DNA of 62,725 nt, filler included, from Chrysochromulina tobinii (Eukaryota), in assembly GCA_001275005.1 (NCBI GenBank). It is 5 parts of 5 records of this genome, joined end to end, with 100 filler letters (N's around TTAATTAATTAA, not from the genome) between each part and the next. Parts side by side here need not be neighbours in the genome. Positions count along the whole stretch, not along the records: positions 1 to 16,216 come from JWZX01001313.1; 4 more parts are not named here. One strand, 5' to 3'. The notes under the pieces are model-generated. The model did not search any database. It had not been told where the DNA came from and worked only from the letters and a program-made list of their open reading frames with translations. This document shows positions 871-62,300 of the stretch, one piece after another. Each line of letters begins with the position of its first letter. Position 1 is the stretch's first letter. The position numbers were made by a program, and so were the translations under genes.

Positions 871-3353
871 TCATACATTGAGGGCATCTTTCTCACCGAG
901 ACCCGAAGCAGGTGCACGCAGGTCACATACTTCGATGGCCAGCTCCTCCTGCGCAGCCACCAAAAGATCGCGCTTGGTTCGCGCGTGGTGGTCTCGGTGG
1001 TACTCCGCATGGAGGTACGAGTACGCTTTGTGCCTGAAGGTCCGCTTGCGACCCACCGTGAAGCCGCGCGGAAAGAGGGCGTTCACGGTGTTGGAAAAAA
1101 AGAATTGCAGGAAGTCCGGCGCACGGTTCTTAATCTTGACCGCAGCAGAGAGCGCCAAGCGACCGCGCATGCCCACGTGGTTGAAACCAACCAGGAACAA
1201 GGTTCCGACTTTGCACTCGTCGCTCGCCAGCCGCAGCCGCACCGCGTCTGCAAGGGCGACGGCGCCGGCATCGCCAATGTCGTTGCTGCCCAGGTCGACC
1301 AACTGCAGCTCGCGCGCCTTGCCCATGGCGATGAAGGCCGCGAAGGATTGCAGGCCAGCGTCGCCTAAGTCGTTGCCGACGAAGAAAATCACCTTGAGGC
1401 CGGGCGCGACGCCACTGATCAGCGCGCTGCCGAGGGCCTCGACACCGCGTGGGCCCAGGCGGTTGAATCCAAGGAAGAGCTGCTCGAGCTGGGGCAGCGC
1501 GCCGGAGGAGAGGACGCCGCTGATGGAGGCGAGATGCTCGTCGGTGAGGCCGGTAAAGTTGAGATCGAGCCTCTTCAGGTTGACGCAAAAGTTGAGCGCC
1601 TGGCCGAGCCGTTCCGGCGAGCGCCACGGGTCCTTAGGGTCGAAGGGGATGCCGAAGAAAGAGAGCTCCTTGACGCAACCGAGGACGGCACGTGCCGTCT
1701 TCTCGTAGAGTGCGAGCACCTGCGCCCGGTCGGCGCCGTTGGTGAAACTGCGCTCCTTGAAGAGTTCCTCCATCCGCTCGGGCGTTGTCGGCAGCCTGCG
1801 AAGTGCTGCACGCTGCTTGCCGAGGTCGATGACGAGAGGCCAACCCGCCTGATGAGGGAGGCAATCAGGCTGATGAGGGAGGCAATCAGGGCTCATCAGG
1901 TTGATGACGAGGGGCCAACCCGCCTGCTGAAGGGTGAACGTCTTGCCGAGCTCCGCAGAGCACCGTTCGAACGTCGTCCAGCCGCGGCTTTCGTACGTGC
2001 GAATTGCATCGAACGATTTCGGCAGCTTCTTGGGCAGCTCGGTGAGCAGAACGACCGTCGTCTTGGAGTGCGCGTACCACAAGTCCATCGTGTGATCGAG
2101 TGCGAATTTCGTCGCCTGGGCCTGCGCCTCCGTTCGGCTGTCGCGGTAGCGCTCGGCCGCGCGCCGCTGGTCCTCGGTACGCTTCTCTTCGGCTATGAGC
2201 TCGGCCGGAGTCCACATCCTCGGATCCTTCTGAAAGAGGGAGGCCCAGTCGAAGAAGACGCCCATGTCGCAGAAGCCGTAGGCCTGGCACACGCCGAGCA
2301 GCCCAGAGCGGCGCAGCACGCCGAAGCTTGGGAAGAGGGTCTCCAGCCGTGTGCACAGCAGCCGCAGCTGCTCGCCATCGCAGTCTGGGTGCCTCGGTTC
2401 CAGCCAGCAACTGCGAGTGCACGCGGGGACATGCGGACCGTGTGAGAGGTGGGCGCCGGACACAATGAGGGGGATTGCAACTCAACGAGGGGGCGTTCGG
2501 CGCGACGTGACGCGTACTATGAGATGGCGACGATAGGGAGCAGGTCATCGACGTTGCGCTTGACAAACTTGCACGAGAAGATCTTGAAGAGCACGCGCAA
2601 CGCGCGCTTGAGCAGATTACCCTCACCAAGCTGCACCTCGAGCGTAAACGTCTCGTAAATCGAATAAAAGTCCACGCCGCGCTTCGCCTGCCGTGAGATC
2701 TTCTGCAGCTCGTCGACGCCGATGAAGGCGGCCTCAGGCAGCTCCTGCCGCCGCGGCAGGACGCCGCCGTATTCCCTGTGCACGCTGCTACCTGGCTGGC
2801 CGAGCGCGAGCAGCCACGACAGGCGCACCAGGCGCACCGGCCGCTCGCTCTCCTTGACGCCGTCGCCTTTGAGCGCTTCCCAGACCTCATCGTGGCCGAG
2901 GTAGCGCCGCGCAGCCGCCTGCGCCTCTTCGGAGGAGACGGCAGGGCTCGTACCTCTCGGGTGTGAGAGTGCCACCTCGCGAAGCGATTGGGATGGCTTG
3001 AGACGCTCCGAAGAGGGAATGCCACTGCAGGAGCACAGCCTGATGCCGACGGTCAGGCACAAGAGCGAGAGTGGCAGATAGATAAACTCCACACTCAAGA
3101 CGATTGCACTCACGATGCCCATGATCAGGGTCACGGGCAGGATGCACAAGTGGACCGCGAGGGGCATCGCGAGCAAGTCATGCAAGTAGAGGTGCGCCGC
3201 GAACACATGGACCGGAAAAAGAACGATGAGCAGAATGGGCGTGGCGATGGTCCCAATGAGCAGCATGGCCTGGATTACGTAACAGAGGGCGATTTGAATG
3301 GATGGCTTCCATGGCAGCGCGGTGCCCGACGGCAAAGTGCGGGCGGAGTTCAT
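871..3353 (-). CDS. Membrane-anchored HET-like domain + RI-type LRR protein (3 exons)
   Basis: ORFs 2517-3353 and 871-2463 join through GT-AG intron 2411-2517 (IVAISY|CWLEPRHPD). In-frame GC-AG intron 1849-1923. Hydrophobic N-terminal helices; HET-like motifs AISYCW, FFDWASLFQ, MDLWYAHS, YESRGWTTFER; C-terminal RI-type LRRs (LFLGFNRLGPRG, VDLGSNDIGDAG). Confidence 0.75.
1849..1923 (-). other. 75-nt GC-AG intron flanked by exon duplication
   Basis: Intron start copies the downstream exon (AGWPLVI encoded twice, 2 mismatches over ~28 nt); ends in two copies of CTGATTGCCTCCCTCATCAG. Confidence 0.7.
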
Positions 3354-3687
3354 CCACCAGGTGGATCCTGACCAACAAACATCGTTTTCCCACAGCCCGG
3401 AAGCGACCCATGGTACAATGTTCTCCCATGGTATATGTCCTGTGGGCGCTTCCGCGTCCGTGTGGTGGTTACAAATTGTGTGGACACTTGGGCCACGTGG
3501 CTAGAGGTCAGCACCCAGCCCCTGTACGCGATATCGCGATTCCTCTTCCGTGGTGTGGTTACAAATTTCGTTGGGACAGGTGGTTACAAGTGTCGTGAAA
3601 CGCAGCTGGTTACACTTCGTAGCGAGTACCTAGGAAGTTCCTAGTGCCAAGGAGCGCCGTATCGTGCACTTGGGACCACGATAGCAT

Positions 3688-3966
3688 GGGCTGTGTCGGC
3701 CACACCTCCGTCCATAGTGACCGTGGTCCTCGTGCTTGGGGGTCCGGAGTGTGTGCGCGCGTTGTGTTGAACAGCAGCAGCACCATCGGTACTATTGGGT
3801 TACGATAGGGGGGAGGGTCTCACCTTCCCCCGCCCGCCGCCGATTAACGGCCTGTGTAATAGCAGGCTGTGTCGGCCACGCCTCCGTCCATTGCGATAGC
3901 GGCCCCCGTGCTTGGGGGTCCGGACGGGAGAGCGCGCGCGTTGTGTGTGTTTCACAGCAGCAGCAC
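3688..3966. repeat. Two imperfect ~100-bp direct repeats
   Basis: GGCTGTGTCGGCCAC...GTGCTTGGGGGTCCGGA...ACAGCAGCAGCAC at ~3688-3783 and ~3866-3966. Confidence 0.7.
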
Positions 3967-4297
3967 AGAAATACGACACAGCATGGCCTGTACTGCCGTT
4001 CCGGTTGAAGACCCTGGGGATGCAGGAGACACGTTCACAGATATACTACGGTACGACCTATGCAGACACTCTGCGTCAAGCCCGACACGTCACGTTGCAC
4101 ATTGTCGTGCCCACGGTCCCAGACACCGCGCAGCGGCGTCGCGCGGTCGGGAGCCTTCTCGTTGTCCCCTGCGCACTGCACGCCCTTCTCAGTGTCCCCG
4201 CCCAACCTGCATTACGAGCACAAAGAGGGTGCTCGCCTCGGCGCCACACCCGCCGTCAACTCGCGCCGAGCAGCATGGTGCCCGGCCGGGCAGATCG

Positions 4298-4462
4298 ACT
4301 AGTACCATATAGCCCAAAAAGGGGGTGCCTGGCAGAACTAGCCCGAAAAGGAGGTGATCAAACTAGCCCAAAAAGGGGGTGATTGCACTAGCCCAAAAAG
4401 GTGGTGATCAAACTAGCCCAAAAAGGGGGTGATCGCACTATCCCAAAAAGGGGGTGATCGCC
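4298..4462. repeat. ~25-bp tandem repeat overlapping the PKS-NRPS stop codon
   Basis: About six copies of ACTAGCCCAAAAAGGGGGTGATC(GC/AA); the last encodes the C-terminal ITPFLG*. Confidence 0.85.
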
Positions 4463-7400
4463 TCGGCCACTCCCGCCGTCAACTCGCCGAACATCATCGT
4501 CCAGTGCGTGCCCGGCAGCTCGATCTTGTGCACCGTTGCCCGCGTCAGGTGCTGCAGCGAGCTCAGGAAGACGCATTCGCTCTGGTATGGGCGAGCGTCC
4601 ACGAGTGGGCAGCGCACGAGGGGGGTAGGCGTGGGCACGTGCGTGTCGAGCAGCCGATTGCATGCGACAAAGTGGCGCGCGGCGTTGGCACTGAGGCTCT
4701 CGAGCATCGCTTCGTCGTCGATCAGGGGAGCCAGCTGGGCGCGGAGCACCTGCCATTAGGTGCAATCAGGTTCAATCAGGTGCAATCAGGTGCAATCAGG
4801 TGCAATCGGGTGCAATCGGGTGCAATCATGTGCACTCGGATGCAACCATGTACATCAGGTGCAATAAGTTGCAATCAGGTTCAATCAGCATGGAGGGAAG
4901 CCAGCTGAGCACCTGCATGACCGCATCGCTGCGCGGGCTACCGTTGGCATCAAGACGCGGGCGGCCGTCCACATCGCTCGCTGTAGACGGATCGTGGAAC
5001 CCTCGGCCCTGCGTCTGCCCGAGTGGTGCATCGAACATGAGCACGGAGTGCACTGCTGGCAGAGGAGTGGGAAAGGTGTGTAGAGCTGGAGGCGCTGCGG
5101 AGGTGGGAGAGGGGTCGTCTTCACGCGCCATCTCGAGCGATCTCGCCTCGAGCTGACGCGCCATCTCGAGCGCCACTACACCACCGTACGACCAGCCGCC
5201 AAGCACGACGGCGGGCGACGCGCCCGCCATGGCGCCGCCCGCCACGGCGCCGCCCGCCACGCCGCCGCCCCCCAAGCCAAGTGCGTCGCTCATCAAGACG
5301 AGGCACTCCGCCGCAACCTCGGCGATCGACCCAAGCTGGAAGTCGCCGCCGTCGGTCAGGCAGCTGTCGTCGAAGGCGTACACGGGCCGTTGGTGGCCGA
5401 GGCGCCGGACCAGCGGCAGGTAGCACAGGCTACTTGCGCCTGCCGGATGGACCAAGAAGAGCGGCAGGTGCGTTGACGAATCCCCCGGCTGCAGGCACAC
5501 CATGCGCAGCTGGCGGGCGGGTGTGCCGGCGCTCGGGACGGCGCTCGACGCGCTGCCGCCGCCGTCCGCGGCGGTGGCGGCGGTGGCGGCGGTGGCGGCG
5601 GCGGCGGCGGCGCTGGCAGCGCTGGCATGCATTTGCGAGCAGATGCCGCGCACGGTGGGCTGTGCGAACAGTTGCTGGACCGTCAGCCGGGTGCCGAGCG
5701 CCGTCCTGAGCGCGAGCAGCAGCCGCAGGGCTGAGACGGAGTCGCCGCCTAGCCTGAAGAAGTGTGAACGTTCACAGCAGAGGGTCGCTACCGGTAGACG
5801 GAGGATGCTTGCCATCGCTTCACGCACCGCCGCCTCGACTGCGTCTGCTGGCTCCTCCACGGCGGGGGAGGTGCCCGACTCGGCGCCCTGCTGTGCGGAG
5901 CTTCGCCTGGTGGGCGGGGGGAGCCGTTTCCGATCCACCTTGCCGTTGGGGCTGAGCGGCACCTGCTCGAGCATCGTCCAGTGATGAGGGACCATGTAGT
6001 CGGGTAGCTTCTCGGCGCACAGGACACGGAGCCTGGCCTGCACGGCGTCGGCGTCGGCGGCGTCGGCTGTCCCGCCAACGGCTGTCCCGCCAACGGCTGT
6101 CCCGCCAACGGCTGACCCGCTAACGGCTGACCCGCTAACGGCTGACCCGCCAACGGCTGACCCGCTAACGGCTGACCCGCTAACGGCAGGCACCACGTAC
6201 GCGGCCAGCTTCCCTTCAAACACGGTAGCGGCCGCGCTCGCCACCGCAGCATCCTTGGTCAAGATCTCCTCAATCTCGCCGAGCTCGACGCGGAAGCCGT
6301 TCACCTTGACCTGCAATTTGAGGCAATCAGAGGTCATCAGAGGTCATCAGAGGCCATCCAATGCAATCAGAGGCCATCAGAGGCCATCGGAGGTCATCAG
6401 AGGCCATCAGAGGCCATCATCAGAGGCCATCCGATGCAATGAGAGGCCATCCGAGGCCATCGGAGGTCATCCGATGCAGTGAGAGGCAATGACCTGCGAG
6501 TCCTCCCGTCCCAAGATTTCTAGTAGCCCATCAGGGCGCAGACGACCAAGGTCGCCGGTTCGGAAGAGCATCGGTCCATTTGGGGTCGAAGGCGTCGTGT
6601 CGGGCGCGCCCGTGCGCAGGAATTGGCGCGCGCTCTTCTCGGGCTCCTGATGAGGGAGGCAATCAGAGGTCATCCGAGGCAATCAGAGGTCATCCGAGGC
6701 AATCAGAGGTCATCCGAGGCAATCAGAGGTCATCTGAGGCAATCGGAGGTCATCGGAGGTACCTCGTAGTAGCCCAACGCGACGCCTGCGCCGCCGATGT
6801 GGATCACGCCAGTAACCCATGGCTCGCAGTGATGGAGGTTGTCATCAAGGATGAGCATCGTCTGGTTGCGTAACGGCCGCCCGTACGGGATGGACGTCCA
6901 GTTGGGATCGGTGCTCAGCACGGCGCCCGGTGTGCCCTCGGGATGCAGCTCGTGCATATTCGACCAGATCGCGGCCTCGGTGGCGCCGCCCATGCTGATG
7001 ATGCGCAGCGCGGCACACTCGGACACGGCACGGATGCGCCCTGGGGAGAGCGCGCGCAATCCAACGAGCGATCAGAAGGCAATCGAGGTCAATCAAGAGA
7101 GATCAAGGGAGATCGCACCTGGGGAGAGCGCGCGAAACCAACGAGCGCTCAGAAGGCAATCAAGGGCAATCAAGGGCAATCAAGGGAGATCGAAGGAGAT
7201 CGATGGAGATCGCACCTGGGAGAGCGCGCGCAATCCAGTCTCCGCTCAAGAAGATGAGACGCAGGCAAGCGGGCAGCGTCCGGCCGGAATGCTCCGCATG
7301 CGCAACGAGCAACTCCATGAAGGCGGGCACGGTGTTCCAGATCGTGATCTGGTGCGAGCTCACGATCTCGAGCCAGATCTCGGGGTCGGGAGGGCTGATG

Positions 7401-10400
7401 AGGTCGTGAGGGGGCACGACCAACGAGGCGCCCGCGCCGAGCAGCCCGAAGACGTCATAGACGGATAGGTCGAAGCTGATGGACGAGAGCGCAAGCACGC
7501 GATCGGACGCACCGACGTCGAAGCGCTCGTTTAGGTCGAGGCACGTGTTCACGGCGCCCTGGTGGTGGCAACACACCCCTTTTGGAACGCCCGTCGAGCC
7601 CGAAGTATAGATGAGATATGCGAGCTCGCGGGGGCGCACGCGCCGTACTGGGCGCGGGTGAGCACGACGAGTGGCGTGCATGGCGTTCACGCCGACCGCC
7701 TCGTTCACACCGACCGCCTCGTTCACGTCAACGAGTGGCAATCCAACGGCTCGAAGCCATGCACACGCGCCGAGCGTGCTGGCGTCGCTCACGACGGCGC
7801 TCGCGTGGCTCAGCTCGAGGATCTGCTCGATGCGCTGCTGAGGCAGCTGGTCGGCGTTGATCGGCAGGTACGCGCAGCCCGCGCGCAGCACGCCCATCAC
7901 GGCGGCCACCTGCTCCCAGCCTTTGGTCGTCACGACGGCGACCACCGTGATCGAGCCGGGCGCTGTGCCGGGCGCTGTGTCGAGCGCCGAGCCAGGCGCC
8001 GAGCTGGGCGCCGCCGCCGTCTCGGGCGCCGTGCCGGCCTCTTCGGTGGCCGCCACTCCAACGTCCGCAAGCCGCGCCCAGACTGCCTCGGATGCGTGGT
8101 CGAGGGCGCGGTACGTGAGCGACGAGGACCGCCCACCCGAGGCATCGAGCCCGAGGACCGCCAACGCGTCGTGCCGAGCGCCCGTTGCATGCTCGGCGAA
8201 GAGCTCATGCAGCAGGCGTGTGTCGAGCTCGGAGGGAGGTGCGACCGGCAGCGCCGCCGTGGGCTCGGGGCGCAGCTCATAGACGAGTTTCGTCCACGCG
8301 CTCTCGTCGGTGCAGAGGGAGTGCAGCAGCCCCTCGTACATGGAGACCATCCCCGTCACCACCTCTGTGGGGAAGAGATCCTGCATGGACGCGAGCGAAG
8401 CCGGCGCCATCAGATGCCATTTGGTGCCATTGCCATCGGGTGCAATCAGGTGCCATCCGGTGCCATCCGGTGCCATCCGGTGCCATCAGGTGCCATCAGG
8501 TGCAATCAGGTGCAATCAGGTGCCACGCACCCGCATGATCTCGAGCAGCCACATGAGGCGCCCGTCGGGGTATTCCTTGACCGCATTCACCACGTACGAA
8601 CCGGGCGTCGCCTCTTGCACATGCACCTCGGTGAATTGAAGCTCGCGCCAATCGGACAATGCATGCTCGAGGCCCATCGCACTGACGAAGACGAAGGGTG
8701 CGACAGCGGCACCCGCTTGGTGGTGTACCTGCGTGGTCCGAGGCAATCCGTTGCCCTCAGAGGTCATCAGGTGCCATCAGGTGCCATCAGGCGTTCTCAG
8801 GAGCACACTCGGGCACACGGGCGCACTCATGTTGCAGTCCGGCGCAGTCAGGCGCCATCGGATGCAATCAGGTGCGATCCGGCGATGCCCACCTTGTTGT
8901 ACTGCTCCATGACCTCGACACCCGAGATCGACGCGTGCTCGAGATCTCGCATGAGCTCGTGCGTGAGTGCCTGGACGTGCTCCAGCACCGTCCTAGGTCG
9001 CTCAAGGTCAGCCTCGAGGAGGAAGGACGAGGAGAAGTTGCCGAGGATCTGGGAGGCGTCAGCATGCAATCACAGTGGTAATCAGTGGTAATCGGTGGTA
9101 CTCGGTGGTAATCAGTGGTAATCGAGGATCTGGGAGGCGTCAGCATGCACCGGGTGGCGATAGGGTGAGGAAGGCAATACGCGAGGCTATACGTGTGACG
9201 ATGAGCGGTACTCAGCAGTACTCGGTGGCAATCAGTGGTCATCAGTGGTCATCAGTGGCGCTCAGAGGAGGCGTGACCTTGGAAACGTCCTCGTGCACCG
9301 GGTGGCGCAGGCAGTGCAGGATGTTCAAAAGGAAGCGCGGGTGGCGAGCGAAGCGCGCCAGCACCAGGCAATAGATCGTCAGCATGACCGAGGTGGGCGT
9401 CACCCCGCGTGCGGCACAGCAAGCCTTGAGGCGCGAGAACATCTCGGCGCTCAGCACGGCGCCAATGTGACTAAACTCGCCCGTGGGGCGCCGTTGGCCC
9501 GGGGCCACAAGCATCGGCAGCTCCGGCGGCGGCGGCAGTTGCGGCACGCGATCCCACCAAAACGCCTTGGCAGCTTGGTACTCGGCGGAGGCCGCGAGCC
9601 CCGACGAGCCCTTGGCGCCGTCCTGAGCGCCGGTGAGGGAGAGGCAGTAGTCTTTGTACAGCAGCGAGCAAGCCGGCAGTTGGGCGTTCGGATCCTCGTA
9701 CAGGATCGAGAGCTGCCGGCGCATGGTCAGGTCGGACACCCCATCCATAATGAAGAGCGAGATGCAGAAGTGCATCGTCGACTGAGTGGGCGAGGTATGC
9801 GACACACGGCACTCGAAGAGTGGCCACGTCTCGGGGCGCGGACCTGTGGGGAGAGGGCGCGCCATGGTGAGCACTTGCATGCATGTGTGTATGGAAGAGT
9901 GGCCACGTCTCGGGGCGCGGACCGTCCCGAACCATCTGCGCCCTTGTGGCGAGCATCTGCTCGGGAGTCGCATGCCCATGCGGCGTCTCCACCGTGATCA
10001 CGTACTCGGGCACTCGCTCCAGCACGCGCATCATGCCGTCCGGCGTAACCACAGCGCGCCATGCCGGGTGGTGAGCACATAGCCGGTTCAGAGCCGCCTG
10101 CAGGCGTGCGATTAGAGGTCGTCAGAGGTCGTCAGAGGTCGTTAGAGGTCATTAGCGGTCATCAGAGGTCATTAGCGGTCATCAGAGGTCATCAGAGGTC
10201 ATTCATTAGCGGTCATCAGAGGTCATCAGAGGTCATCAAAGGTCATCAGAGGTCATCAGAGGTCACCTGCAGGCGCGAGATGTCGATCCGTCCCTTCCAT
10301 TGCCATTCAAAGTAGATCTGCGGGTTGAGCCCCTTCTCGGAGAATTCGGAGATGTGCAAGCCCACATAGTACGCCCGCGTGATGCCGATGAGTGGGAAGG

Positions 10401-13400
10401 GCTCGTGCGCCCTCTCGTGTGCATGCACCACCTGAAACAAGGGTGCCTCCTCCCCTGCCCTTCCTTGTATGGCAAGCCCGTGCTTCGCGTACGCGTCAGG
10501 CTGATCGAGCCGTTGGAGCGCCGTCTTGAGCGCCACCTGATCGTCCACGTGCCTGGCCAGCTGGCGTACGGTCGGCTTCTGGAAGACGGTGCGGATCGTG
10601 AGCTTGTACCCGCCGCGACGTCCTATCTCCTGTGAGGCAGAGAGGCCACGACAGAGGGGATCAGAGGGGCGATCAAAGAGGCCATCAGAGAGGCCATCAG
10701 AGAGGCCTTCAGAGAGGCCATCAGAGGCCATCAGAGGCCATCAGAGAGGCCATCAGAGGCCATCTGAGGCCATCTGAGAGGCCATCAGAGTCCATCAGAG
10801 GCCATCAGCTGAGAGGCCAACCGAGAGGGGATCAGGTCCTACCTGCACCAGCCGCAGGCAAAGCAACGAGTCGCCGCCTAATTGGAAAAAGTGAGCATCG
10901 AGGTCGATGGCTGTGGGGCCATCGAGCTTGAACACGGCCGCAAAGGCCGCTGCAAGCTGCAGCTCGGTCTCGGTGGTGGGCGGCGACACGACTGTATGGA
11001 CCGCCGCCGACGTAATTGACGTAATTGACGTAATTGACGTAATTGACGTAATTGACGTAACTGTATGGACCGCCGCCGACGCCACCGCCGCCGACGACGA
11101 CGACGACGCTGCCGCCGCCGGCGCCGCCAGGGGGCGCGCGGGCTGCTGCACGCTCGCACTTGGGGCCGATGGAGGGGGCGTCGTGCTGGGCACGGCGGCG
11201 GGTAGCCCGCGCTTGAGGGTGGCGGCGATGGTGGTTGCGAGATCGGTGACGCTCAAGACAGCGCTCGACGGCGTGCCCGGGCCCGCGGCAGTTGCGGCGG
11301 TCGTGCTCACCACGGCGCCTGCCATCCGCGGCGGCGGCAGGGTGTGCGCAATCTCGCCCACGGAGATGAGGGGCGAAGCAGCGAGATGCGTGAGCGTGAG
11401 CACGATCGCCTCGAGCATGCCCTCGAGAAAGGCGCCGTCGTGGGCGTCGCTCTCGGACGTGGCCACGACGCTCAGCAGGCTGTGGGGAGCGGCCGCCGAG
11501 CCGCGCTCCATTGCGAAGCGGACGGTGAGCGGCATGCCGATGCGATCGTAGATCGTAGGGGGGGCGGCGCTCACGCCGCCGTCGAGCTCGAGGCCCCATG
11601 CGGCCGATTGGTAGTCGACGATCACGAAGAAGAGGTCGCCATCTCGCACCTGTGGGGAAGGGAGGGCACCGCGCCGTGGTGAGCACTTGCATGCGAGCCG
11701 GGCCGGATTCAGATCGCGATCTCGGACCGAGCTCAGCTGCTTGATCTTCGTGAGCGGGTAGCTCTCATGTAGCTGACACAAACCGAGCTGCCGGTGAATC
11801 GCACGCGCCGTCGCGGCGGCGCCCGCCGCGCCCACGAGTGGCACACGAAGAGGCACCGTGTTCATCACAGGCCCAATGACCTGATGAAGAATTCAATCAA
11901 TAGGTCATTAGATGCCAATCAGAGGTCATCAGAGGCCAATCAGAGGTCATCAGAGGCCCAATGACCTGCGCGAGCTGCGGCACGGGCGCCGTGCGTCCCG
12001 ACAGGGCACACCCAAAGACGACCTCGTCGGCATCGGCCCCCTCGTACACCCACTGGACGATGGCCCACGCGGTGTGGCAGAGCGCAGCGATCGTCACCCG
12101 CTCCTGCACAGCAAGCGTCCTCAGCCGCTGCAGCACGGCGCTGTCGAGGACACACCGACGGCGCGTGGCGACGCCGGTCGCGGTTTCAGAGCAGCACATC
12201 TTTAAGGCGCCCAAGCCCGCCGGGATCGGGCGCGCCGTGCTGGGCAGGCTGTGCACCGCCTGCTGCCAGAACGCCTCGGAAGCGGAGCCCGGCTCGGCGC
12301 TTAGGGCGGCTTCATGACGCAGCTTTACCTCGTACGAGGGCGGCGGCGGCAGCGGCACGCCCGGCGTGTTGTACCCATGCGCGACGGCGTCGACGAGGAG
12401 GCGGAGGGACCATCCATCTTCGATGATGTGGTGGATGGACAGCAGCATCAAGTGCTCCTCTGCGCCAAACTGAAGCACGCGGACGCGAAGCAGCGGCGCG
12501 CACTCGAGATTTGAAAGCTCCGCGCGCTCCGTGGCCATCACCTGCTGCGCGAGCCCCTCGCGCGCGCGCACGCTCGTGCAATCGGGATGCACGCTCACGC
12601 CGAAAGGCAACTCGGCAGTCGGTTCGACGACCTGCTGCGGCTGCGGGAGCGCCTGGAGGTCGAAGCGCGTGCGCAGCATCGGCGTGGTGGCGACCAGCTG
12701 ACGCCACGCCGCGTGCAGTCGCGCCGTGTCGAGCGCCCCGTGGAGCTGCCACATGATGGAGAGGACAAAGGGGTGCTGCTCGGGGGAGCGGGCGGGGGAG
12801 GACAGTCAGCATGCAAATGGGGAGGGCAATCAACGGGTGCTGCTCGGGGGAGCGTGGGAGAACAGTCAGCATGCAAATTGGGAGGGCAATCAGCATGCAT
12901 GCACGCGCACCTGCTCGGGGGAGCGCAGGTGCTCGAAGATCATCGCGCGCTGGAGGGCGGAGGTCTCCATCACGAGCCCATCTCGGCGCGCGGAGGTCTC
13001 CATCACGAGCCCATCTCGGCGCGCGACACTTCGTTGATTGCCCTCCCCATTTGCATGCTGACTACCCTCCATTGCGATCCAACCTCGGTGCGCAGGGGGC
13101 GGCAAATCGCTCTCGACGACGGTGAGCCATCCATTCACATTCACAGAGTCGGACGAGCTCAGCGAGTGTGAATCGGCCGATCCGGCAAAGTCGACGGTCT
13201 CGGTCTCGTCAACCACGTCATCCTCGGATCCTAATTTGGACGAGATCTCGATCTCCGACTTTGTCTCCGGTTCGAGCGCCGTCCCGAGCGCCTCGAGGTG
13301 TGACATTGCCTCCTCGACCAGCCGTTGTACGCTCAGGTTCAGAAGCTCGTCCGGCTGGAGGTACATCTGCACGCGCGCCCGGCGCGGCGCGTCGTGGGGA

Positions 13401-16216
13401 AAGAGCCCGTCCAGGATCTGGTCACGGAGCTCGACGGACGAAAGGGAGTCGAGACCCCTCTCCACCAGAGGTGCCCATTGCAGCGCCTCCATCGCCGCCT
13501 CTGACGTGCCCTCGGCCAGCGGCAGCACCGTATTCACAGCCTGCTTCACGAGGCTCAGCACCGACGCACGGCTATGGCGCTCAACACGGCGCTCGGCGCT
13601 GCCGCGGCCACTTCCGTTGGCTTCGAGCACGCCCTCGGAATGGTGATCAACACGGCGCCCAATCTCCGGCGCCGAGCTCGCGAGCGCAGCGCCCGCGCCC
13701 GCGGCAGCGCTCGCGCTCTCGGCAGCGCTCGCTCGCGTCGTCGTCGGGCGCCAGCGCCACGGGTAGACTTGCGTGCGGTAGGCGGCAGCGCCGAGATGGG
13801 CACCGAGCATCGCTCGGAGGGGTGCGCACTCTGCAGGCGCGGCGGGGCGTCCGCGGCGACCTGATGGACAACGTGGGCGGCATGGGCGGCGCCGCTTGCA
13901 GCAGTGCGTGCGCGTTGCTGCCCCCAAACCCAAACGAGCTCACGCCCGCGACGGCGCTCGGTTCGGCGGCGGAGTCTGGGGGGGAGGCGCGCCGGAGGGG
14001 GGTGCCCGCGACGGCGCTCGGTTCGGCGGCGGACTCCTGGGGGGAGGCGCGCCGGAGGGGGGTGCTCTGTACCGGTAAGGCGAGCCCGTACGCCCGTAAA
14101 AAGGGGGCCACCTGGGGGTTGAGGGCGCTCAGGTGGCCATTGGTGAACGTGCTCGCCAGCCGGAGCGCAAGCGCCGTCTTGAGCATGCCCGCCATCCCGG
14201 CGGCGCCCTCGAGGTGGCCCACACAGGCCTTGATGGCGCCGATCATCACGGGCCGTTGGCGGTGTGGGGAGCGCTCGACGAGTGCGGCATGCAACGCAGC
14301 TGCTTCGATTGGGTCGCCGAGTGCGGTGCCCGTACCTGCGGGGATAATGCGCTGTGGTGAGCGCTTGCATGCAAGGCAGGTCATCAGTGGCAATCAGCGT
14401 ACCTCCTCACTTGCATGCAAAGCAGGTCATCAGGTGGCAATCAGCGTACCTCCTCACATACATGCAAGGCAGGTCATCAGGTGGCCATCAGCGTACCTCC
14501 TCACATACATGCAAGGCAGGTCATCAGGTGGCCATCAGCGTACCTCCTCACATACATGCAAGGCAGGTCATCAGGTGGCCATCAGCGTACCGTGTGCTTC
14601 GAGCAGCGTGACCTCGGCCGCCGTAACGCCGCCGTCAGCCAACGCTTGAGCGAGCAACGCCTGCTGTGCCCGCGCACTCGGCGCCGTGAGCCGCGCGGTG
14701 CGTCCGTCGCTGTTGACGGCCGTGCCGCGGATGAGGCACAGGGGCGGCAGCAGCCTTCTGCGCGAGCTCATCGGGCGTCGAGCTCCACCCTCGGGAGATG
14801 TGAGCTCCGCCTCGGGAAATGTGAGCTCCGCTTCCGGAGATGTGAGCTCCGCCTCGGGTGATTGGAGCTCGACAAGCAGCGCGCCGCCGCCCTCGGAGCG
14901 CACGTAACCGTCGGCGCGAAGGGCAAAGGCCTTGCATCGCCCCTCCACCGAGAGCATGCCCGCATGCTTGCGCACCTGATGAGGGAGGCAATCATCGGGT
15001 CATCAGTGGTCACCAGTGGTCATCGGTCGTCATCAGTCGTCATCAGTCGTCATCAGTCGTCATCAGTCGTCATCAGCATGCTTGCGCACCGCGAGGGCGC
15101 GAGGCGAGAGTAGCAAGTCGAACGCGCCCACGACGACGCGGTCCACGCCGCGGCTCGGCTCTCGCAGCAGACGCGCCGCCAGGTGCAACGCGGTGCCTGC
15201 CGACGAGCACGCGGTGTCGACGACGAGGCTCGCGCCGCCCAGCCCGAGCACATACGAGAGACGGTTCGCAGCGATTGAAGGGGCGACGGAGGTGCCCAAG
15301 AAGGCGCCGCCCCGGGCGCCGTGTGCACTCGAGGCGAGCTCGAACTGCCAGTCGTGATTTGAGAGCCCGACGCACACGGCCGTGCGGGTTTGGCTCGCCA
15401 TGTGCGACGGGGAGCGCAGCAGCTCGCCCAGTGTCTTCGGACGACTTTTGGCGGGGGCGGACGAGTCGCCCAAGACGGCGCCCACGAGAATCTCCGTGCC
15501 GAGCTCGAGAAGGAGCCGTTGATGAGGATCCATTGAGATTGCCTCCGCCTCCGCGATCCCAAAAAAGGAAGCTCCAAACCGCTCGGCGCCCTGCGGCGCG
15601 CTCAAGAAGCCGCCGAACGCCTCGCCGCCGCCGCAGGCATCGCCGCTCCAGCCCGGCGGGCCGGTGTGAATGGCATCGCCGTGTGAACGTAGCAGGCTTG
15701 TGAGAGCGTCGGAGCGGTTGCAGCCGCCCGGTAGGCGGCTGGACGTGAGCACGAGCGCGATGGGTGCCTCGACGAGCGGGCGAGCGAGCGAGGCGCGAGA
15801 CGCGCCGGCAGCGGAGCCCGCGTCAGCGGCAGCAGCAGCAGCAGCAGCAAGGGAGGGAGCGGGAGGGAGGCCGTCGCCACCGCCGCCGCTTTGGCTGGCG
15901 GCACGAGCGTCAAGGTAGGCCAGTACGGCGCGCGGCGTCGGGTGGTCGAATAGCAGCGTGCTCGGCAGCGGCGCCAGCTGCGGCGCCACCTCGCGCTCGA
16001 GTAGCGTGAGCAGCTCCGAGAGCGCGAACGAGTCAAACTCCATGTCCATCAGGGAGCTGTCGAGGCAGCTGGCGAGATCGATCGAGATTGAGAGGCTCGC
16101 ACCCACGCGCTGAAGCGCCGCCCCGAGCGCGCCGTCGAACTTAGGCGCCGATGCCGCCGGTGTCGCGGACGCCGCCGGCTTCACAGACAACGCCGTCGGC
16201 GCCGCCGCCGCCGCTG
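4438..16216 (-). CDS. Hybrid PKS-NRPS megasynthase, 5'-truncated at contig end: ACP-KS-ACP-C-PCP-Cy-A-PCP-TE
   Basis: ACP EFDSFALSEL; KS MDPHQRLLLE, DTACSS, EAHGTGTALGDPIE, GHLEGAAG, VSSFGFGGSNAH; ACP GLDSLS; C HHIIEDGWS; PCP FFQLGGDSL; Cy-like EPFPLIGITRAYYVG, WPLFECRV, GVTPTSVML, LGNFSS; A YTSGSTGVPKG, GGATE, FRTGDLGR, QVKVNGFRVELGEIE, NGKVDR; PCP FFRLGGDSV; TE HPAGA, GWSYGG, PGTHW. Fourteen GT-AG introns checked by hand join successive ORFs in phase; one junction (~13730-13900) is unresolved. Confidence 0.93.
4750..4912 (-). other. GT-AG intron with (TGATTGCACC)n repeats and 10-nt junction duplication
   Basis: GCAG|GTGCTC at both ends; phase 0 join of TE exons. Confidence 0.85.
6070..6190 (-). 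repeat. In-frame 15-bp coding tandem repeat (GSAVS/GTAVG)
   Basis: About eight copies of AACGGCTG(A/T)CCCGC(C/T) inside the A-domain C-terminal subdomain. Confidence 0.85.
6311..6493 (-). other. GT-AG intron with (TGATGRCCTC)n repeats
   Basis: GCAG|GTCA at both ends; restores GREDSQ|VKVNG. Confidence 0.9.
6647..6762 (-). other. GT-AG intron, 10/20-nt repeats, ends CTGATTGCCTCCCTCATCAG
   Basis: Restores ALGYYE|EPEKS in phase 0. Confidence 0.9.
7041..7215 (-). other. GT-AG intron whose 3' end copies the upstream exon end, with internal tandem duplication
   Basis: TGGATTGCGCGCGCTCTCC(C)CAG at exon end and intron end, plus a diverged internal copy; phase 1 join. Confidence 0.85.
8381..8530 (-). 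other. GT-AG intron with (TGATKGCACC)n repeats
   Basis: Phase 0 join EIMR|DLFP. Confidence 0.85.
8729..8892 (-). other. GT-AG intron with 10-nt repeats
   Basis: Phase 0 join YNK|VHHQ. Confidence 0.85.
9049..9277 (-). other. GT-AG intron with (TGATKACCAC)n repeats and duplicated acceptor
   Basis: Restores EDVSK|ILGNFSS; TGCATGCTGACGCCTCCCAG-ATCCTCG present twice. Confidence 0.88.
9844..9922 (-). other. 79-nt GT-AG intron whose first 29 nt exactly duplicate the downstream exon
   Basis: GTCCGCGCCCCGAGACGTGGCCACTCTTC after both donor and acceptor; phase 1 join. Confidence 0.9.
10098..10266 (-). other. GT-AG intron with (TGATGACCTC)n repeats, 10-nt junction duplication
   Basis: CGCCTGCAG|G at both ends; phase 0. 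Confidence 0.88.
10630..10842 (-). other. GT-AG intron with TGATGGCCTC(TC) repeats
   Basis: Splits the PCP: LRLVQ|EIGRRG. Confidence 0.88.
11650..11727 (-). other. In-frame 78-nt GT-AG intron with diverged exon duplication
   Basis: GTCCGAGATCGCGATCT vs exon GTGCGAGATGGCGACCT; shares GCATGCAAGTGCTCACCA...CCCCACAG cassette with 9844-9922. Confidence 0.75.
11881..11965 (-). other. 85-nt GT-AG intron with 15-nt junction duplication
   Basis: CAG|GTCATTGGGCCT at both ends; phase 0. Confidence 0.9.
12776..12910 (-). other. GT-AG intron with two copies of the upstream exon end
   Basis: CGCTCCCCCGAGCAG at exon end, mid-intron and intron end; two TGATTGCCCTCCC..TTTGCATGCTGACT cassettes. Confidence 0.88.
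12982..13083 (-). other. Probable in-frame intron carrying the shared cassette in antisense orientation
   Basis: CGAG|GTTGG...CGAG|AT; 33-nt tandem duplication gives an alternative acceptor at 13015. Confidence 0.5.
14336..14590 (-). other. GT-AG intron made of ~47-nt tandem repeats
   Basis: Restores EAHG|TGT (phase 1); GGTACG at both ends; ends in GCATGCAAGCGCTCACCACAGCGC...CCCCGCAG. Confidence 0.9.
14976..15089 (-). other. GT-AG intron with 15-nt junction duplication and (TGATGACGAC)n
   Basis: G|GTGCGCAAGCATGC at both ends; ends TGATTGCCTCCCTCATCAG. Confidence 0.9.
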
Positions 16217-16316
16217 NNNNNNNNNNNNNNNNNNNNNNNNNNNNNNNNNNNNNNNNNNNNTTAATTAATTAANNNNNNNNNNNNNNNNNNNNNNNNNNNN
16301 NNNNNNNNNNNNNNNN
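16217..16316. other. Artificial contig linker
   Basis: N-run + TTAATTAATTAA + N-run, 100 nt, stops in all six frames. Confidence 0.97.
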
Positions 16317-30293: not shown

Positions 30294-31057
30294 ATGTCAG
30301 CACCGCGTACAATCGCTTAATACAATCGCAATGGCCACGGCGAGCTCTGCTGCGATCAACGGGCAAAGTTGCCTCTGCGCCGCCGCCGCCACCTGCGCGG
30401 CCGCCACCAGCAAGCTTGTGCTAGCGTTGTCAGCGCCGCCGGGCGAAGTGCTATAGGGCGGCTGAAGCGGCTGCAGCGGCACGCGTAGCACGTCGCCGCG
30501 CACTGGCAGGCTCTCGGCGTCGCATATCTCGAGGAGGCATATAGCGGCTGCACCTGGTGGCATGGGCCGCCAAGCAGGAGCGACGGAGGCGGCGCGCCCG
30601 CACCGAGCGCCAGGTTGCAGTGCGTGGGACTGGGCGACCACGTCGCGGTCGGCGTGCGCCGATAGGCGCATGGGACGCGACAAGTTTACGGCCACGAGAC
30701 TGTCAGAGCCGTCGGAGGCATCAGCGCGGCCTCGGCTCAGGATGAGGTAAGGATGAGGTATAGATGAGGTAGGCAATAGGTATACAATAGGTAGGCAACA
30801 CGGTGCCAATGCTGCGCTCGCTGGAGCGTAAGCATCGATGCGAACAGCGAGAGCGCGTGATCGCGCTCGAGAGGGTCCGCGCTCGCGTGCGCCCGCGCGA
30901 TCGCGGCGCGTGAGTCTGACTCGTTGGCACGCTCTTTGCTTTTCAAAATGAGGGTGCCTGGCTGCATCAGCTCGAGAAGCCGGGCACGTGCGGCATCGTC
31001 GAGCACAGCGCAGTAGATCTCGGGATAGCGAGGATTGGTGCGTACCGAGCGGGTAAT

Positions 31058-41070: not shown

Positions 41071-41170
41071 NNNNNNNNNNNNNNNNNNNNNNNNNNNNNN
41101 NNNNNNNNNNNNNNTTAATTAATTAANNNNNNNNNNNNNNNNNNNNNNNNNNNNNNNNNNNNNNNNNNNN
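41071..41170. other. Artificial contig linker
   Basis: Same N/TTAATTAATTAA/N linker. Confidence 0.97.
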
Positions 41171-41390
41171 CGGCGGCGATGGCGGCGGTGGTAGCAGTGG
41201 CACCTCGAGCGCTCGAAGCGACGCGAATGGCGCGGTCACGCGAGAGGTACCGCCCGACACGGCGCCGAGCCTGAAAAAGCGCGAGGCACCGTCCGAGACG
41301 ACGCGGGGGAAGGAGGAGGCGGCCGAGGATGGCGAGACTGAGGAAGGTGAGCTCGCGCCACCGAGCAAGAAGCCGCGTGAGGAGGAATGA
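41171..41390 (+). repeat. Diverged duplicate of the cyclin gene 3' end (46511-46740)
   Basis: Near-identical sequence with substitutions, fewer EEGEI units and a different stop. Confidence 0.85.
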
Positions 41391-46519: not shown

Positions 46520-46751
46520 TGGCGGCGGTGGTAGCAGTGGCACCTCGAGCTCCCGAAGCGACGCGAACGGCGCGGTCACGCGAGAGGCGCCGCCCGGCAT
46601 GGCGCCGAGCCTGAAAAAGCGAGAGGCACCGTCCGAGACGACGCGGGGGAAGGAGGAGGAGGCCGAGGAGGGCGAGATTGAGGAGGGCGAGATTGAGGAA
46701 GGTGAGCTCGCGCCACCGAGCAAGAAGCCGCGTGAGGCGATGCGGACATGA
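45035..46751 (+). CDS. Cyclin T/K-family transcriptional cyclin (4 exons)
   Basis: FLQESGHRLRL|..ATAIVFYHRFY|VATTCLFLASKVEETPKKL..ERELLRVLGFDLSVEHAY|RPL..IINDSLRT; introns ~45292-45385, ~45470-45573 (GC donor), 45789-46012. Confidence 0.88.
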
Positions 46752-51263: not shown

Positions 51264-52981
51264 ATGATACTTGCGGTTTCGCTACTCATCGGCCTCCCGC
51301 TTGAGGCGATTGGCAATAGTGAAGTGAGCAGGCAGCCCAGCCGCGCACAGGTGCTCGTCATCGTCTCTGACTCGGGAAGCGGCACAACAGACTTCGGCGA
51401 AGCGCTCAATAAACACCCATGCATGTTCAACTTGGGAGAGCCCTTCATGCAAAGCGCAATGATGTGGTCTAAGAGCGAGATCGCCGGATGCGTGTATCCT
51501 GACGCACTCTTCGATGCGGACTCTGGCCTTCTCAAGCACAACAACAACACGCAGCTGACTCGCAAGATCGGTGAGCTCAGATCCAGCAAAGCTCGGCAAG
51601 CTTGGCAAGAGACAGGCAAGCGACCGGACGAGAATCTCGCCGGTGACTCTCCCTTGCTGTACGAGGGCCTGGACTACAACCTCGCGGACTACTTCGTCCG
51701 CATCCGCGATCACATCTGCGCGAGTGTCCCCGATGAGATCTGCCCACTCTCAGATTGCACAATCTCCCTGAAGATGTTCCCGCAGTTCGTGAACGCCCAC
51801 ACGGGCCCAACACCGCCCACACCAGGCAGGTGCACGGACGCGCGTAACGAGAAGGCGATGACGGCGTGGAAGCAGGCGCTCGAATCCATGAAGAGCAACC
51901 CGAAGGTCGCGACGTTTGCGCTCCTCCGGAACGAGCTCGATAGGCAGTTTTCCGTCTTCCGCAGATTCAGTCTCCCTGGTACTCAGTTTGACTGCAGCAC
52001 GCCGCGCGCGCCCAGCGCGTTCGCCAACGTGTCGACCAACTACACCGACACCCAGATGCAGATCGAGAGCTGTTGGAAAGATGCGGCGGGTGCCGACGAG
52101 TGCGTTGGCCACGCTCTTGGGCTCGTAGGCCTGTCATCCATGCCGGTTCTAGGGGACGCGGGGAAGGCCGTCAACATCATGCAGGCGGGCGAGGTCTCGT
52201 TCTTGTACCACGCGGCGCAGGCGAGTTTCTCCACGGAGCACGGACCCCTGATTGCCACGATCAATTGCCACCATCAACTAACCATCAACTGCTCACCAAT
52301 TGCCACACCAATCGCCACTATAATTGCGCGCAGGCGAGTTGCGCCACGGACCCCGACGCCATCTTCAAGCGGGTGGGGCAGGACAAGTGCGTTGGACAAG
52401 TCGATGCGTTGGACAAGTGCGTCATAATAGAGGGCCGCTCTCAACCTCTGCACTCCCAACCCCTAGCCAACGCGGCGTTCGCGGCACCAAAGGGCGTCTC
52501 GGACCTAATCTCGGACCTACCGGACGTATCGAGCGATGCGGTGGTGAAGAGCGACGGCGCGTTGGTGTTCGCCAACTACGTCACCAACCTTGTGCGCCCT
52601 CAGCAGGGCCACCCTAGTACGCCGGGCGAGAGCTATCCTCGTTCATGGCCCGATAGCTTCCCGGCCCCTCATCCGAGCCGAGCCCTGCAGCCCGAGGACC
52701 AAACTACGCAGAAGCACGCCGTAGGTGCCGCCGACTGCCGGTGCCTCGCCCCTAGCGAGTGCGACCAGCTTCTGGACCTGGTGCTGCCCGGCACCCCGAT
52801 GGTTCAGCAGGCCAAGTGTGGCTGCTCGCCCAACTGCATGCTGGTGCACTGGCAGCCAGTGCACAAGATCACGGAGCCTGTCGACATGGGCCATGACGCC
52901 CTCCCTCCCCTAACACCTTCTCCCGCCCCCGAACCAGATGGCGTTGCGCATGCTCTCAGTCTGATGCCATCGATGTTGTAG
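51264..52981 (+). CDS. Secreted sulfotransferase-like protein (2 exons)
   Basis: Signal peptide; SDSGSGTTDFGEALNKHP..LGEPF resembles a PAPS-binding loop; GC-AG intron 52221-52333 joins ORFs 51264 and 52073 in phase 0. Confidence 0.55.
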
Positions 52982-56931: not shown

Positions 56932-57031
56932 NNNNNNNNNNNNNNNNNNNNNNNNNNNNNNNNNNNNNNNNNNNNTTAATTAATTAANNNNNNNNNNNNN
57001 NNNNNNNNNNNNNNNNNNNNNNNNNNNNNNN
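56932..57031. other. Artificial contig linker
   Basis: Same linker. Confidence 0.97.
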
Positions 57032-59271: not shown

Positions 59272-59371
59272 NNNNNNNNNNNNNNNNNNNNNNNNNNNNN
59301 NNNNNNNNNNNNNNNTTAATTAATTAANNNNNNNNNNNNNNNNNNNNNNNNNNNNNNNNNNNNNNNNNNNN
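59272..59371. other. Artificial contig linker
   Basis: Same linker. Confidence 0.97.
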
Positions 59372-59373
59372 AT

Positions 59374-62300
59374 GCGCTCGGCAAACCTATCGTCGGCAAG
59401 CTCAAGGAGAAACTCGCCAAGTGCCGCACGGAGAAAGGCAAGACGGTCTCTTCGGTCGAAGTCTGCAACGAGTGCGACGAACCAATCGAGCTCGAGTGCT
59501 CGGTGCTCGAGGCGCACGACCTCAACATCATGATCGACCTCAGCTCCAAGCCGCCGAGCACACCGACGACAATCGACGATATGCCCACGGCAATCCTGAC
59601 ACGCTTCGTCGGCCTCGCCGAGAGCACGAACCCGTTTGTGCTGACCGCTGTGTCGCACGGCTTCATGAGCGCCGTCAACGAATACGTCGAGAGCATCTAC
59701 GAGGCCGAGGAGCGCATGCACGCGATCGAAATCGCTGACTGCAAGTTGCGAGCAGACACGCAGCGCAAGGCGCTTGCCGCGTCCCCATCGCTGCGCGCCG
59801 TATGCGCCACGCAAATTCAGGAGGCATTCAAGCGCTTCCTCGACCGACGGCGCCACAACATCAGCGGCATCGAGCTCGAGATCAACTCGGCGATGCATGA
59901 GAACACTGGTGAGTCGACGGTGCGAGTGCAGATCGACGGCGGCGCCAACACGAACCTCTTCGTCTCCCAAGCTATCAGAGCGCGGGCGACAAAGACGGGC
60001 AGCACGACGCCGCTTGGACTCGCTGGCAAAGGCCAACACCTGCCGACGCAGGGCGATGCCAAGCTCACCATCGAGCTCATCGACGAGCTCTCAGAGGTGT
60101 TCGCGACGGGCACAATCAACGGCGTACTTGCACCAACGGGCCGGCGCGACCTCCTCGGCGTAACACCAGTATGGGATGTCGTGCAGCTCACCTTCCTGCC
60201 TGAGCCGTGGCTGCTCGCAGTCCATCCGGCAAGCGGCCGAGCGGGGACCATGACCCGCTGGAACGGGCTCTTCATCATGGACGCGACCATGACGACCACG
60301 GGCATCTCGTTCAAGCTGGACAAGACGCTCAAGCCGCACGACCTGTCGGCACTCATCTCATGCAAGGCTCACGAGGCCTCGGTCGTGGATGTGTCATCGC
60401 ACCACAAGTACGTGCTCCTGGCAGCGCAAATGCATGTCGACGCGTCTGGGCTCCGGCGCCTCGCCGGCACCGCCCCGACCTTCGACTTCAAGACGGTACC
60501 GACGACAGCGGCGCGCCTCATCGACACGGACATGATCAGAATTGCGGCCAACCTGCGCAAAGCACCTGCGGTGCAACGGGCGCCCGCTCTCCATCGGCCG
60601 ACCGAAGTCGGTCACACGTTCCAAGTCGACGGATTCGGGCACGTCGGCGTCAAGGCAGCCGGCTGCTCGGACACGTACCAGTGGCTGATCATCGACGCGG
60701 TCTCCGACTACATGTACGATCACCTGACGTGCACGTCGAACCAGGCCACGCTCTTCGAGTTCCTCGACACCTGGCACGCGAACGAGACGGCCCTCGGCCA
60801 CAGCCCCAAGGTCCTCATCTTTGACGCGTGCCCAACGTGGGCATTCGACTCCGCCTTCACCCCGCTGATCGCAGCTCGCTACAAGTGCAAGGCGATCGTC
60901 GCAGCGGGGGGCGACCACAACCGCATCCCGAAGATGGAGGCTGCGCAGGACCCACTAACGCGCATGGCAGAAGCGATGCTCAAGCGTCGTGTGTGGGGCA
61001 AAGGCTTCTTTTTGCATGCGCGCTCATACGCCGTGCAGATCAGGAACCACAAGGTGGCTCACCATCAGACGCACACGAGAGTCCATCGGCACACGGGCAA
61101 GCCTGCTGATGTCACATTCATCCTCTTCGGCACGACGTGCGCGATCCTCAAGGACGGGCTGAACTCACAGCGCACAGAGGTCGGCACGGAGCGCACGGAC
61201 AACGCCGACATCATCGGGTACGAGCCTAACGCCCGCAAGTACAAGCTGTGGAAGAGCGACACGCAGCGCATCATCCACCGCACGAACCCGCGCCCGCTTA
61301 ACGAGATGCAGCTCGCGCTGACGGGCATCCCGGCCAGTGGCACCGTGGTCGAGGCGGAAGTGCAGACGGACGACGATGCGACCTACGCGCCGCTCGTGCT
61401 CGCTGCCCCGCCGAAGCCACCGCCCGCACCGATCGTCATCCAGGCGGGCTACGAGCCGCTGCCTGATGGCACGCGACTTGAGATGTGCTTCGACACGGAT
61501 AAGCAGAAGCCCACATGGTTCCCGGCCACGGTCACCAAGTCCCACAAGCAAGAGTCGGGCAAGGTGTTCACCGAGCTGAGCTGGGACGACAAGAGCTGGG
61601 CCGACGATCCGAAGTGGAAGGGCAAACTCTTTGACCTCACATCGCAGCACCAGCCGTGGCGGCTGCTCAACGCGCCCTCGCCTGCCGCTACCGCACCCGT
61701 GCCCGCCGCGCCTATCGCCCCAGTGATCGCGCCGCAGCAGGGGGCGCCACGTCGAGTCCTGCGATCGACTAGGCTGGCAATGCCGGTCTCGGCTGCGCTC
61801 GAGCGCGTCCTCCCCGGGCTCTCGGAGACCGCGGCCATCGACACCTTCAACGCAATCGCACACCAATGGCTCGGCCACGTCGTGCCGATCGAGGTGCAGT
61901 CGATTGAGGAGCTCGACAAGGCACGCGAGCACATCCACCAGCTGGAATGCGCCCTCGACAAGATCGACCCGTTCCAGGCCGAGGTGAGCGCCACCGAGCT
62001 GGCCGATGGCCTCGAAGTCTCCAAGGCGCTCAAAAACATCGTCGACGTCAAGTCGGCGAGCGGTGAGTGGTACACCATCACCATCCCCAAGAACGAGCGC
62101 GCGCTCAAGGCCGACCCGAACGAGGCCGCATGGCGCCTCTCGCATCAAGCAGCTCACGAATCCGTCCTCTCGAACCCGCTGAACACGATGGAGAAGCGCA
62201 AGGTAGCCAAGGCACTCGGCGCGATCATCTCCCCGGTCGTGATGCAGGACTCCGTGAAGAAGGATCTCGTGACGCACGAACTGCTCAAGTTCAAATCCAG

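Follow-up and report, generated by a model that had tools for sequence, protein, structure and literature searches.

Two genes with a shared intron end

The window is the whole 62,725-nt stretch of Chrysochromulina tobinii DNA that we analyzed. It consists of five joined contigs, separated by four N-gaps (16217-16316, 41071-41170, 56932-57031, and 59272-59371) that carry the same 12-nt AT spacer at mid-gap and are artefacts of scaffolding. The introns described here lie in two minus-strand genes on the first contig. The first gene (874-2481) had initially been annotated as HET-LRR. Pfam supported the LRR assignment but not the other half of the name, returning LRR_6 only and no HET domain at E ≤ 1e-4. 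It is a member of a large and apparently mosaic family represented by 40 database clusters at 71-95% identity and by many Emiliania relatives. The named relatives of its protein are from Chrysochromulina, with Emiliania at ~44% identity. The second gene was correctly recognized as a PKS-NRPS, with ketosynthase, PP-binding, condensation, AMP-binding, and thioesterase domains detected by Pfam.

Both genes contain a 20-mer that we call acceptor cassette 1. Exact minus-strand copies lie at 1849-1868, 1870-1889, and 6647-6666, where the initial annotation had placed them. The copy at the third site, which carries one mismatch, had also been located correctly, but it spans 14976-14995 and thus ends one base beyond the reported 14994. 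Shuffled sequences gave a chance expectation of 0.02 copies versus the four minus-strand copies observed, and no further copies with up to three mismatches were found in the 62.7 kb window. All three cassette sites form the 3' ends of predicted introns, as had been proposed.

In the LRR gene, the cassette ends a 75-nt GC-AG intron (1849-1923, minus strand, as are all features in this section) that is in frame and free of stops, and family members occur with and without it. The distal cassette copy at 1849-1868 contains a predicted branch motif, a pyrimidine tract, and CAG. The second copy at 1870-1889 repeats it with a 21-nt period and is a possible in-frame alternative acceptor. The intron begins with a 26-nt copy (1898-1923, two mismatches) of the start of the following exon (1823-1848), and this copy gives the GC donor. 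The 114-nt GT-AG intron at 14976-15089 consists of an exon copy, decamer filler, and the cassette. Its GT donor is given by a 14-nt exact copy (15076-15089) of the exon start at 14962-14975. This intron lies within the ketosynthase domain, with positions 3-213 of the Pfam profile before it and 213-248 after it. The remaining cassette, at 6647-6666 within the adenylation domain, ends a 116-nt GT-AG intron (6647-6762) made of decamer filler plus cassette, in which a long exon copy is not detectable.

Other introns in the window have a like architecture. The intron at 9844-9922 ends in a second type of acceptor (family 2) and starts with a 29-nt exact copy (9894-9922) of the exon start at 9815-9843. 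A diverged cassette ends the intron at 11881-11965, which contains a 19-nt exon copy with one mismatch. The intron at 7041-7215 represents a mirror class, in that its 3' end (7041-7066) copies the end of the upstream exon (7216-7240).

Decamer-array introns are dense in the LRR and PKS-NRPS genes (1849-15089) and nearly absent from the long ORFs of 17000-62725. The exceptions in the latter region are one clear decamer array near 52251-52327 and a weak one at 30741-30798. This uneven density may reflect low expression or local copying. Overlapping the 3' end of the PKS-NRPS gene at 4310-4459 is a 25-nt tandem repeat with decamer-like cores on the opposite strand. Just past the ketosynthase domain (13861-13935), the PKS reading frame shifts with no obvious frame-restoring intron, possibly through a frameshift, an assembly error, or an unusual short intron. 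Elsewhere in the window, 59372-62725 is a long ORF-rich stretch that looks like a retrotransposon polyprotein by eye. Near-duplicate sequences from a cyclin-like gene's 3' end lie at 41171-41390, next to an N-gap, and at 46520-46740, and the pair represents either alleles or an assembly duplicate.

Cassette 1 in metagenome contigs

An exact scan of metagenome contigs for the 20-mer identified at least 136 loci. These contain at least 238 raw copies, at least 173 of them distinct, and 167 with usable flanks. The same 20-mer gave 0 matches in viral contigs and 0 in prokaryote genome contigs. Of 162 sites on 120 contigs, 144 were seen once and 18 twice; capture-recapture from these counts puts the number of sites at roughly 500-700, assuming uniform sampling of a single species.

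We examined the sequence that follows each cassette. Among the copies listed, G directly follows the cassette in 139 of 167, with GT in 101 and GC in 29. A codon model trained on 13 long ORFs from the window was used to score 145 cassette sites; among the sites listed, the downstream sequence was called confidently sense in 98, confidently antisense in 6, and weak in 41. Pfam matches were present in 22 of 217 sense ORFs versus 0 of 129 antisense ORFs, a comparison of unmatched sets (sense ORFs up to 300 aa, antisense ORFs up to 150 aa), and the families matched downstream of cassettes are many and unrelated. A family-A DNA polymerase gene (loci L045-L047) holds several cassette-1 and cassette-2 introns. 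These results uphold the initial view of the 20-mer as a portable 3'-splice-site module, given its strong tie to acceptors in sense-strand coding sequence and its movement between unrelated genes. Arrays outside the cassette-selected set mostly end otherwise (86 of 127 in the loci and 9 of 12 in the window), and 40 of the 127 end in a cassette-1-like acceptor. On these counts, the cassette may have seeded the decamer arrays, as initially suggested, or may derive from them.

The 5' half of the 20-mer matches a decamer of the arrays, as had been noted, and this decamer is the commonest one upstream of cassettes (61 of 440, tandem cassette copies included). The complementarity of the terminal CTGAT and ATCAG is real but weak (-1.3 kcal/mol, z -0.83), and we found no sign that it plays a role: compensatory changes between the two ends amount to 1 among 169 variant copies. 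We rejected a hairpin or TIR reading of the 20-mer based on this weak fold and the lack of covariation. An snRNA source was not borne out, as an Rfam search of 1500-16000 gave three weak matches that all fell far under the family thresholds. No A-rich tail was present in either orientation. Branch points follow a CTRAY-type consensus, and the 20-mer has the form of a minimal acceptor. The A at position 4 of the cassette is near-invariant (changed in 1 of 81). We do not take this as a specific sign of a branch point because T14, A16, and T17 are equally constant and A4 is equally fixed in non-acceptor copies.

Exon copies within cassette introns

We looked for duplicated exon starts upstream of terminal cassettes, defined as the 103 cassettes, among the copies listed, that have no decamer in the next 100 nt. 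An exon copy was called when an upstream match was anchored at base +1 after the AG and scored at least 10. Exon copies of 10-55 nt were found for 52 of the 103. Calls were made for 0.4% of 2032 swapped flanks and for 0 of 100 shifted anchors in the control sets. Another cassette precedes 14 of the 52 copies, giving stacked units, and the other 38 follow non-cassette sequence. These 38 unstacked copies are 13-55 nt long (median 23) with 43 mismatches in 968 positions, and 13 are exact. Their first bases are GT in 31 cases and GC in 4. Between exon copy and cassette lie 2-126 nt of filler, mostly decamer, and the lengths of copy and filler are inversely related (rho -0.55, n = 57). Excising the copy, filler, and cassette together leaves the same frame across the flanks in 38 of 41 cases (34 of 34 when confidently called), against a chance level of one in three. 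In these introns, the GT or GC donor comes from the exon copy and the acceptor from the cassette, with decamer filler in the middle.

No long exon copy was detectable for the other 51 terminal copies, which include the one at 6647 in the window. The exons that follow these cassette introns are equally donor-like in their starts (frequency of G 0.88, of T at +2 0.71), as expected if the target supplied the donor. Filler length differs within the allele pairs L002/L004 and L037/L089, and neither pair gave a clean presence/absence difference.

The same type of duplication extends beyond cassette 1. A flanking direct repeat was present in 164 of 356 decamer or cassette-2 arrays from the loci and the window versus 25 of 315 in a shifted control. 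Automatic sorting placed 56 of the 164 in a duplicated-donor group and 14 in a duplicated-acceptor group (the mirror class). In 31 more, AG/GT falls within the repeat, and 63 received no assignment; on visual inspection, many of these 31 and 63 are stacked or internal repeats. The second acceptor family has 30 copies, three in the window (9844-9880, 11650-11691, and 14336-14369) and 27 in the loci. It has a conserved 5' motif, a variable pyrimidine tract, and usually CCCACAG, and it occurs in a like exon-copy architecture. Nine of the 56 duplicated-donor arrays end in a family-2-like acceptor. Together, the mirror class and the second acceptor family point to a symmetric and general process, of which cassette 1 is the commonest cargo.

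Traces of copying between introns

In two pairs of introns, one member carries bases from the exon of the other gene. L074, in a gene for a gamma-tubulin complex component, and L134, in a gene with a Piwi domain, have 41 exact bases in common before the cassette. Nine of the 41 belong to the L074 exon and are not found in the L134 exon, and the join falls inside a 7-nt shared word. At each of the two loci, units are stacked at a single splice point and their copies differ in length. In the other pair, L110 and L051 contain the same 73-nt intron with two mismatches and have no long similarity elsewhere. The L051 intron holds eight bases of the L110 exon past a 12-nt shared word, along with the GC-to-GT change of the donor. 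The transfers run from L074 to L134 and from L110 to L051, and these are the only two between genes that we traced. Assembly chimerism at L134 and L051 was rejected since the recipient's own sequence lies on both sides of the foreign piece with a 7-12 nt overlap; the L051 site is, in addition, identical in a second assembly (L107).

Copying within a locus left similar traces. Two introns of a MORN-repeat gene (L094), apparently at different repeat positions, have an odd 22-nt filler in common. Filler identity of at least 12 nt was found in 4 of 95 same-locus pairs versus 0.48% of 11381 other pairs. At L108, two cassette introns on opposite strands have in common a filler unit that is otherwise rare and the 7 nt that follow the AG, which suggests local copying across strands.

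The junctions were then scored for homology. At the entry junction, where the end of the exon copy meets known filler, microhomology averaged 3.2 nt versus 1.6 nt under a constructed null, with 49 of 63 units scorable and one circular 16-nt value (L074 scored against its own recipient). Exit homology of at least 6 nt past the AG was weakly enriched among loosely related pairs (3 of 57 versus 155 of 11418, p 0.04). It reaches 12 nt in L110/L051 and 6 nt in L094.

Empty sites in the LRR gene family

Contigs of sequencing runs and homologues both gave evidence of LRR genes without the intron. DNA run X7 contains a 75-nt skip within 1500-2420, the exact length of the intron, with 36 letters on its shorter side. 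RNA run X11 contains the same skip; it was not seen in X15, nor in X17, where coverage was patchy (9 of 30 bins). The joint in X11 could come from an empty paralog rather than from splicing. No unambiguous RNA joint uses a cassette-1 AG, and none of the 15 joints listed (84 more were recorded) falls at these introns. The sole clean spliced joint we saw belongs to a decamer intron without cassette 1 (8729-8892, minus strand), which is skipped in contigs of all four RNA runs.

We compared 40 LRR homologues at 71-95% identity. The insert is read through in 6 database proteins, absent from 33, and one has no anchor motif; the count is blind to introns with stops, and some records may derive from RNA. 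Several homologues without the insert lie on contigs of 9-65 kb. We built a tree from 39 close rows and 3 outgroups, leaving out P0028, which has no anchor motif. The six inserts are near-identical yet scattered on the tree. This pattern fits a young gain spread by recombination or conversion between paralogs and, equally, repeated precise loss. The tree itself does not fix the polarity.

Discussion

We compared the cassette introns to known sources of new introns. The pattern is real and probably represents an unusual intron-creating process that acts like an introner yet lacks similarity at both ends, a fixed TSD, and TIRs. Sequence-similar introns occur in non-paralogous genes (at least 173 distinct exact copies), as they do for introners, but the 5' end is a locus-specific exon copy, with L110/L051 as the exception. 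As in the type drawn in Fig. 2B of PMC9860276, the donor is co-opted from a target duplication, the acceptor is carried, and the mRNA is predicted to be unchanged. The introners described there have TSDs of 3-9 bp, whereas the duplications here vary from 13 to 55 nt, only the 3' end is common, and the interior is a minisatellite (PMC9860276). The screen in that account requires similarity at both intron ends and filters out low-complexity families. It reports up to 827 introners in marine Chrysochromulina MAGs, and the one figured has a 4-bp TSD and carries its 5' site (PMC9860276). C. tobinii is listed elsewhere with 0 introner families (PMC12130899). The same source gives a family from another haptophyte, Emiliania huxleyi fam24, that resembles ours in length (~70 nt) and in its class, "co-opt 5' carry 3'", with the mechanism given as unknown. 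Compared by description alone, fam24 differs in having 5 copies, 10-bp terminal direct repeats, and a 2-nt automated TSD (PMC12130899).

Introns ascribed to staggered breaks are also flanked by direct repeats, but these are short and enclose one-off fillers; the filler here is traceably copied from other introns, and the family numbers hundreds. Theta-mediated end joining is known to make templated insertions. A polymerase-theta-type insertion would show microhomology at both junctions and a preference for nearby templates; here, entry microhomology and local sharing are enriched, and exit homology is enriched weakly. E. huxleyi introns reportedly carry 10-11 bp tandem repeats, according to its genome paper. 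GC and GA donors are described as common in that species (PMC4028052). In tandem genomic duplication, a duplicated exon segment likewise gives the splice sites, but classically with no foreign insert (PMC3443670). Intron transfer, as described in the same source, uses homology to move an intron to an empty site between paralogs, whereas the genes here are unrelated and share 7-12 nt; few intron gains with a known donor are listed there (PMC3443670). Small tandem duplications at breaks with 3' overhangs combine a duplication with a microhomology-joined insert and are described as mutational scars (PMC8355091). We found no report of such scars as a self-propagating source of introns in the literature searched. 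Further intron literature was compared (PMC3296678, PMC11282704, PMC8469720, and PMC4580454), and the portion of PMC2784329 covered held nothing relevant. The literature searched, which included few subscription papers, contained no earlier description of this architecture, and the consensus sequences of Gozashti et al. could bear on its novelty. The process is best classed as break-repair gain combined with intron transfer between unrelated genes.

We consider it probable that template switching, primed by microhomology at DNA breaks, carries copies of intron ends to new sites, with selection keeping those that can be spliced. A broken or stalled 3' end, whose position within the exon varies, would anneal to the filler or exon copy of a donor intron, consistent with the statistical excess of entry microhomology; the enzyme may be polymerase-theta-like. 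Copying would then run through filler and cassette to the AG, as in the two traced pairs. The end would next return to its own gene 10-55 nt upstream, producing the exon duplication that we observe, probably by way of a few shared bases starting with GT or GC, as is weakly suggested. The duplicate would act as donor and the cassette as branch point and acceptor, so that splicing would restore the mRNA exactly; the frame is indeed restored. Antisense or unspliceable products would be purged, and such selection may be the source of the sense bias. Every new intron would serve as a template, with nearby donors favored, consistent with the stacking and local sharing seen. The flanking direct repeats permit the observed stacking and may also permit precise loss. 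A transposase would be unnecessary, and the template may be DNA or unspliced pre-mRNA.

Several other explanations have some of the evidence on their side. Non-LTR elements truncated at the 5' end leave insertions with a fixed 3' end, variable 5' extent, variable duplication, and 5' microhomology. Our introns resemble SINE and other non-LTR insertions in their variable TSD, fixed 3' end, and truncated 5' end with microhomology. A LINE-type enzyme might therefore nick DNA and prime reverse transcription on excised intron RNA, copying to a variable extent from the 3' AG and leaving a variable TSD, and the listings of PMC12130899 include a non-LTR-type introner from a haptophyte of the Pavlovales. 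We regard this as unlikely. It leaves unexplained the mirror class, whose donor is carried and whose acceptor comes from the duplication, and the common sequence that runs past the AG by 12 nt in L110/L051 and 6 nt in L094. The lack of an A-rich tail and the sharing within loci, which includes the opposite-strand pair at L108, also speak against it. Also short of a full account is the idea that new sequence has merely replaced old at long-established intron positions: ectopic copying would stack units at an existing 3' splice site, and the original 5' part would then be deleted. Such turnover certainly occurs in stacked units, as seen in the 14 of 52 exon copies preceded by another cassette and in L074 and L134, whose stacked units differ in copy length at one splice point; the scatter of insert-bearing LRR homologues is compatible with it too. 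As a general explanation it is quite improbable, because sites in the LRR family are mostly empty and exon starts resemble donors also in the introns without a detectable copy.

Two further readings fare worse. The 5-bp complementary ends of the 20-mer could be the TIRs of a non-autonomous, MITE-like introner, and marine Chrysochromulina genomes do contain introners (PMC9860276). We consider this very unlikely, since a variable duplication of 13-55 nt, against the 3-9 bp of PMC9860276, largely refutes it; the insert lacks a fixed 5' end, the complementary 5-mers delimit the 20-mer and not the insert, and compensatory change was limited to 1 in 169 variants. Scarcely credible is an origin with no mobility at all, in which selection for an optimal acceptor consensus and minisatellite slippage in old introns produced the 20-mer. 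Its minimal-acceptor form and the variation in filler length between alleles (L002/L004) are in keeping with such an origin, but neither selection nor slippage can yield exon copies anchored at +1, foreign exon bases in introns, or empty sites.

Beyond the template-switching steps proposed above, we regard a broader formulation as evenly balanced: that there is a transposase-free, self-propagating intron factory, in which break repair copies intron ends into exons genome-wide through microhomology of a few bases, the products become the next templates, and decamer minisatellites and cassettes are the selected cargo. The captured exon bases would make chains from donor to recipient traceable.

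Where new intron sequence comes from is an old question. Introns gained with a common 3' end, filler made of repeats, and a long, variable duplication would be invisible to introner pipelines because their screens need both ends to match, and other repeat-rich algae could commonly gain introns in this way. Annotation is affected too, as introns of this type often resemble in-frame tandem repeats, and one of them is read through in the six database proteins noted above. Since the introns capture bases from donor exons, one small genome can serve both to map how copying proceeded and to test a DNA against an RNA template.
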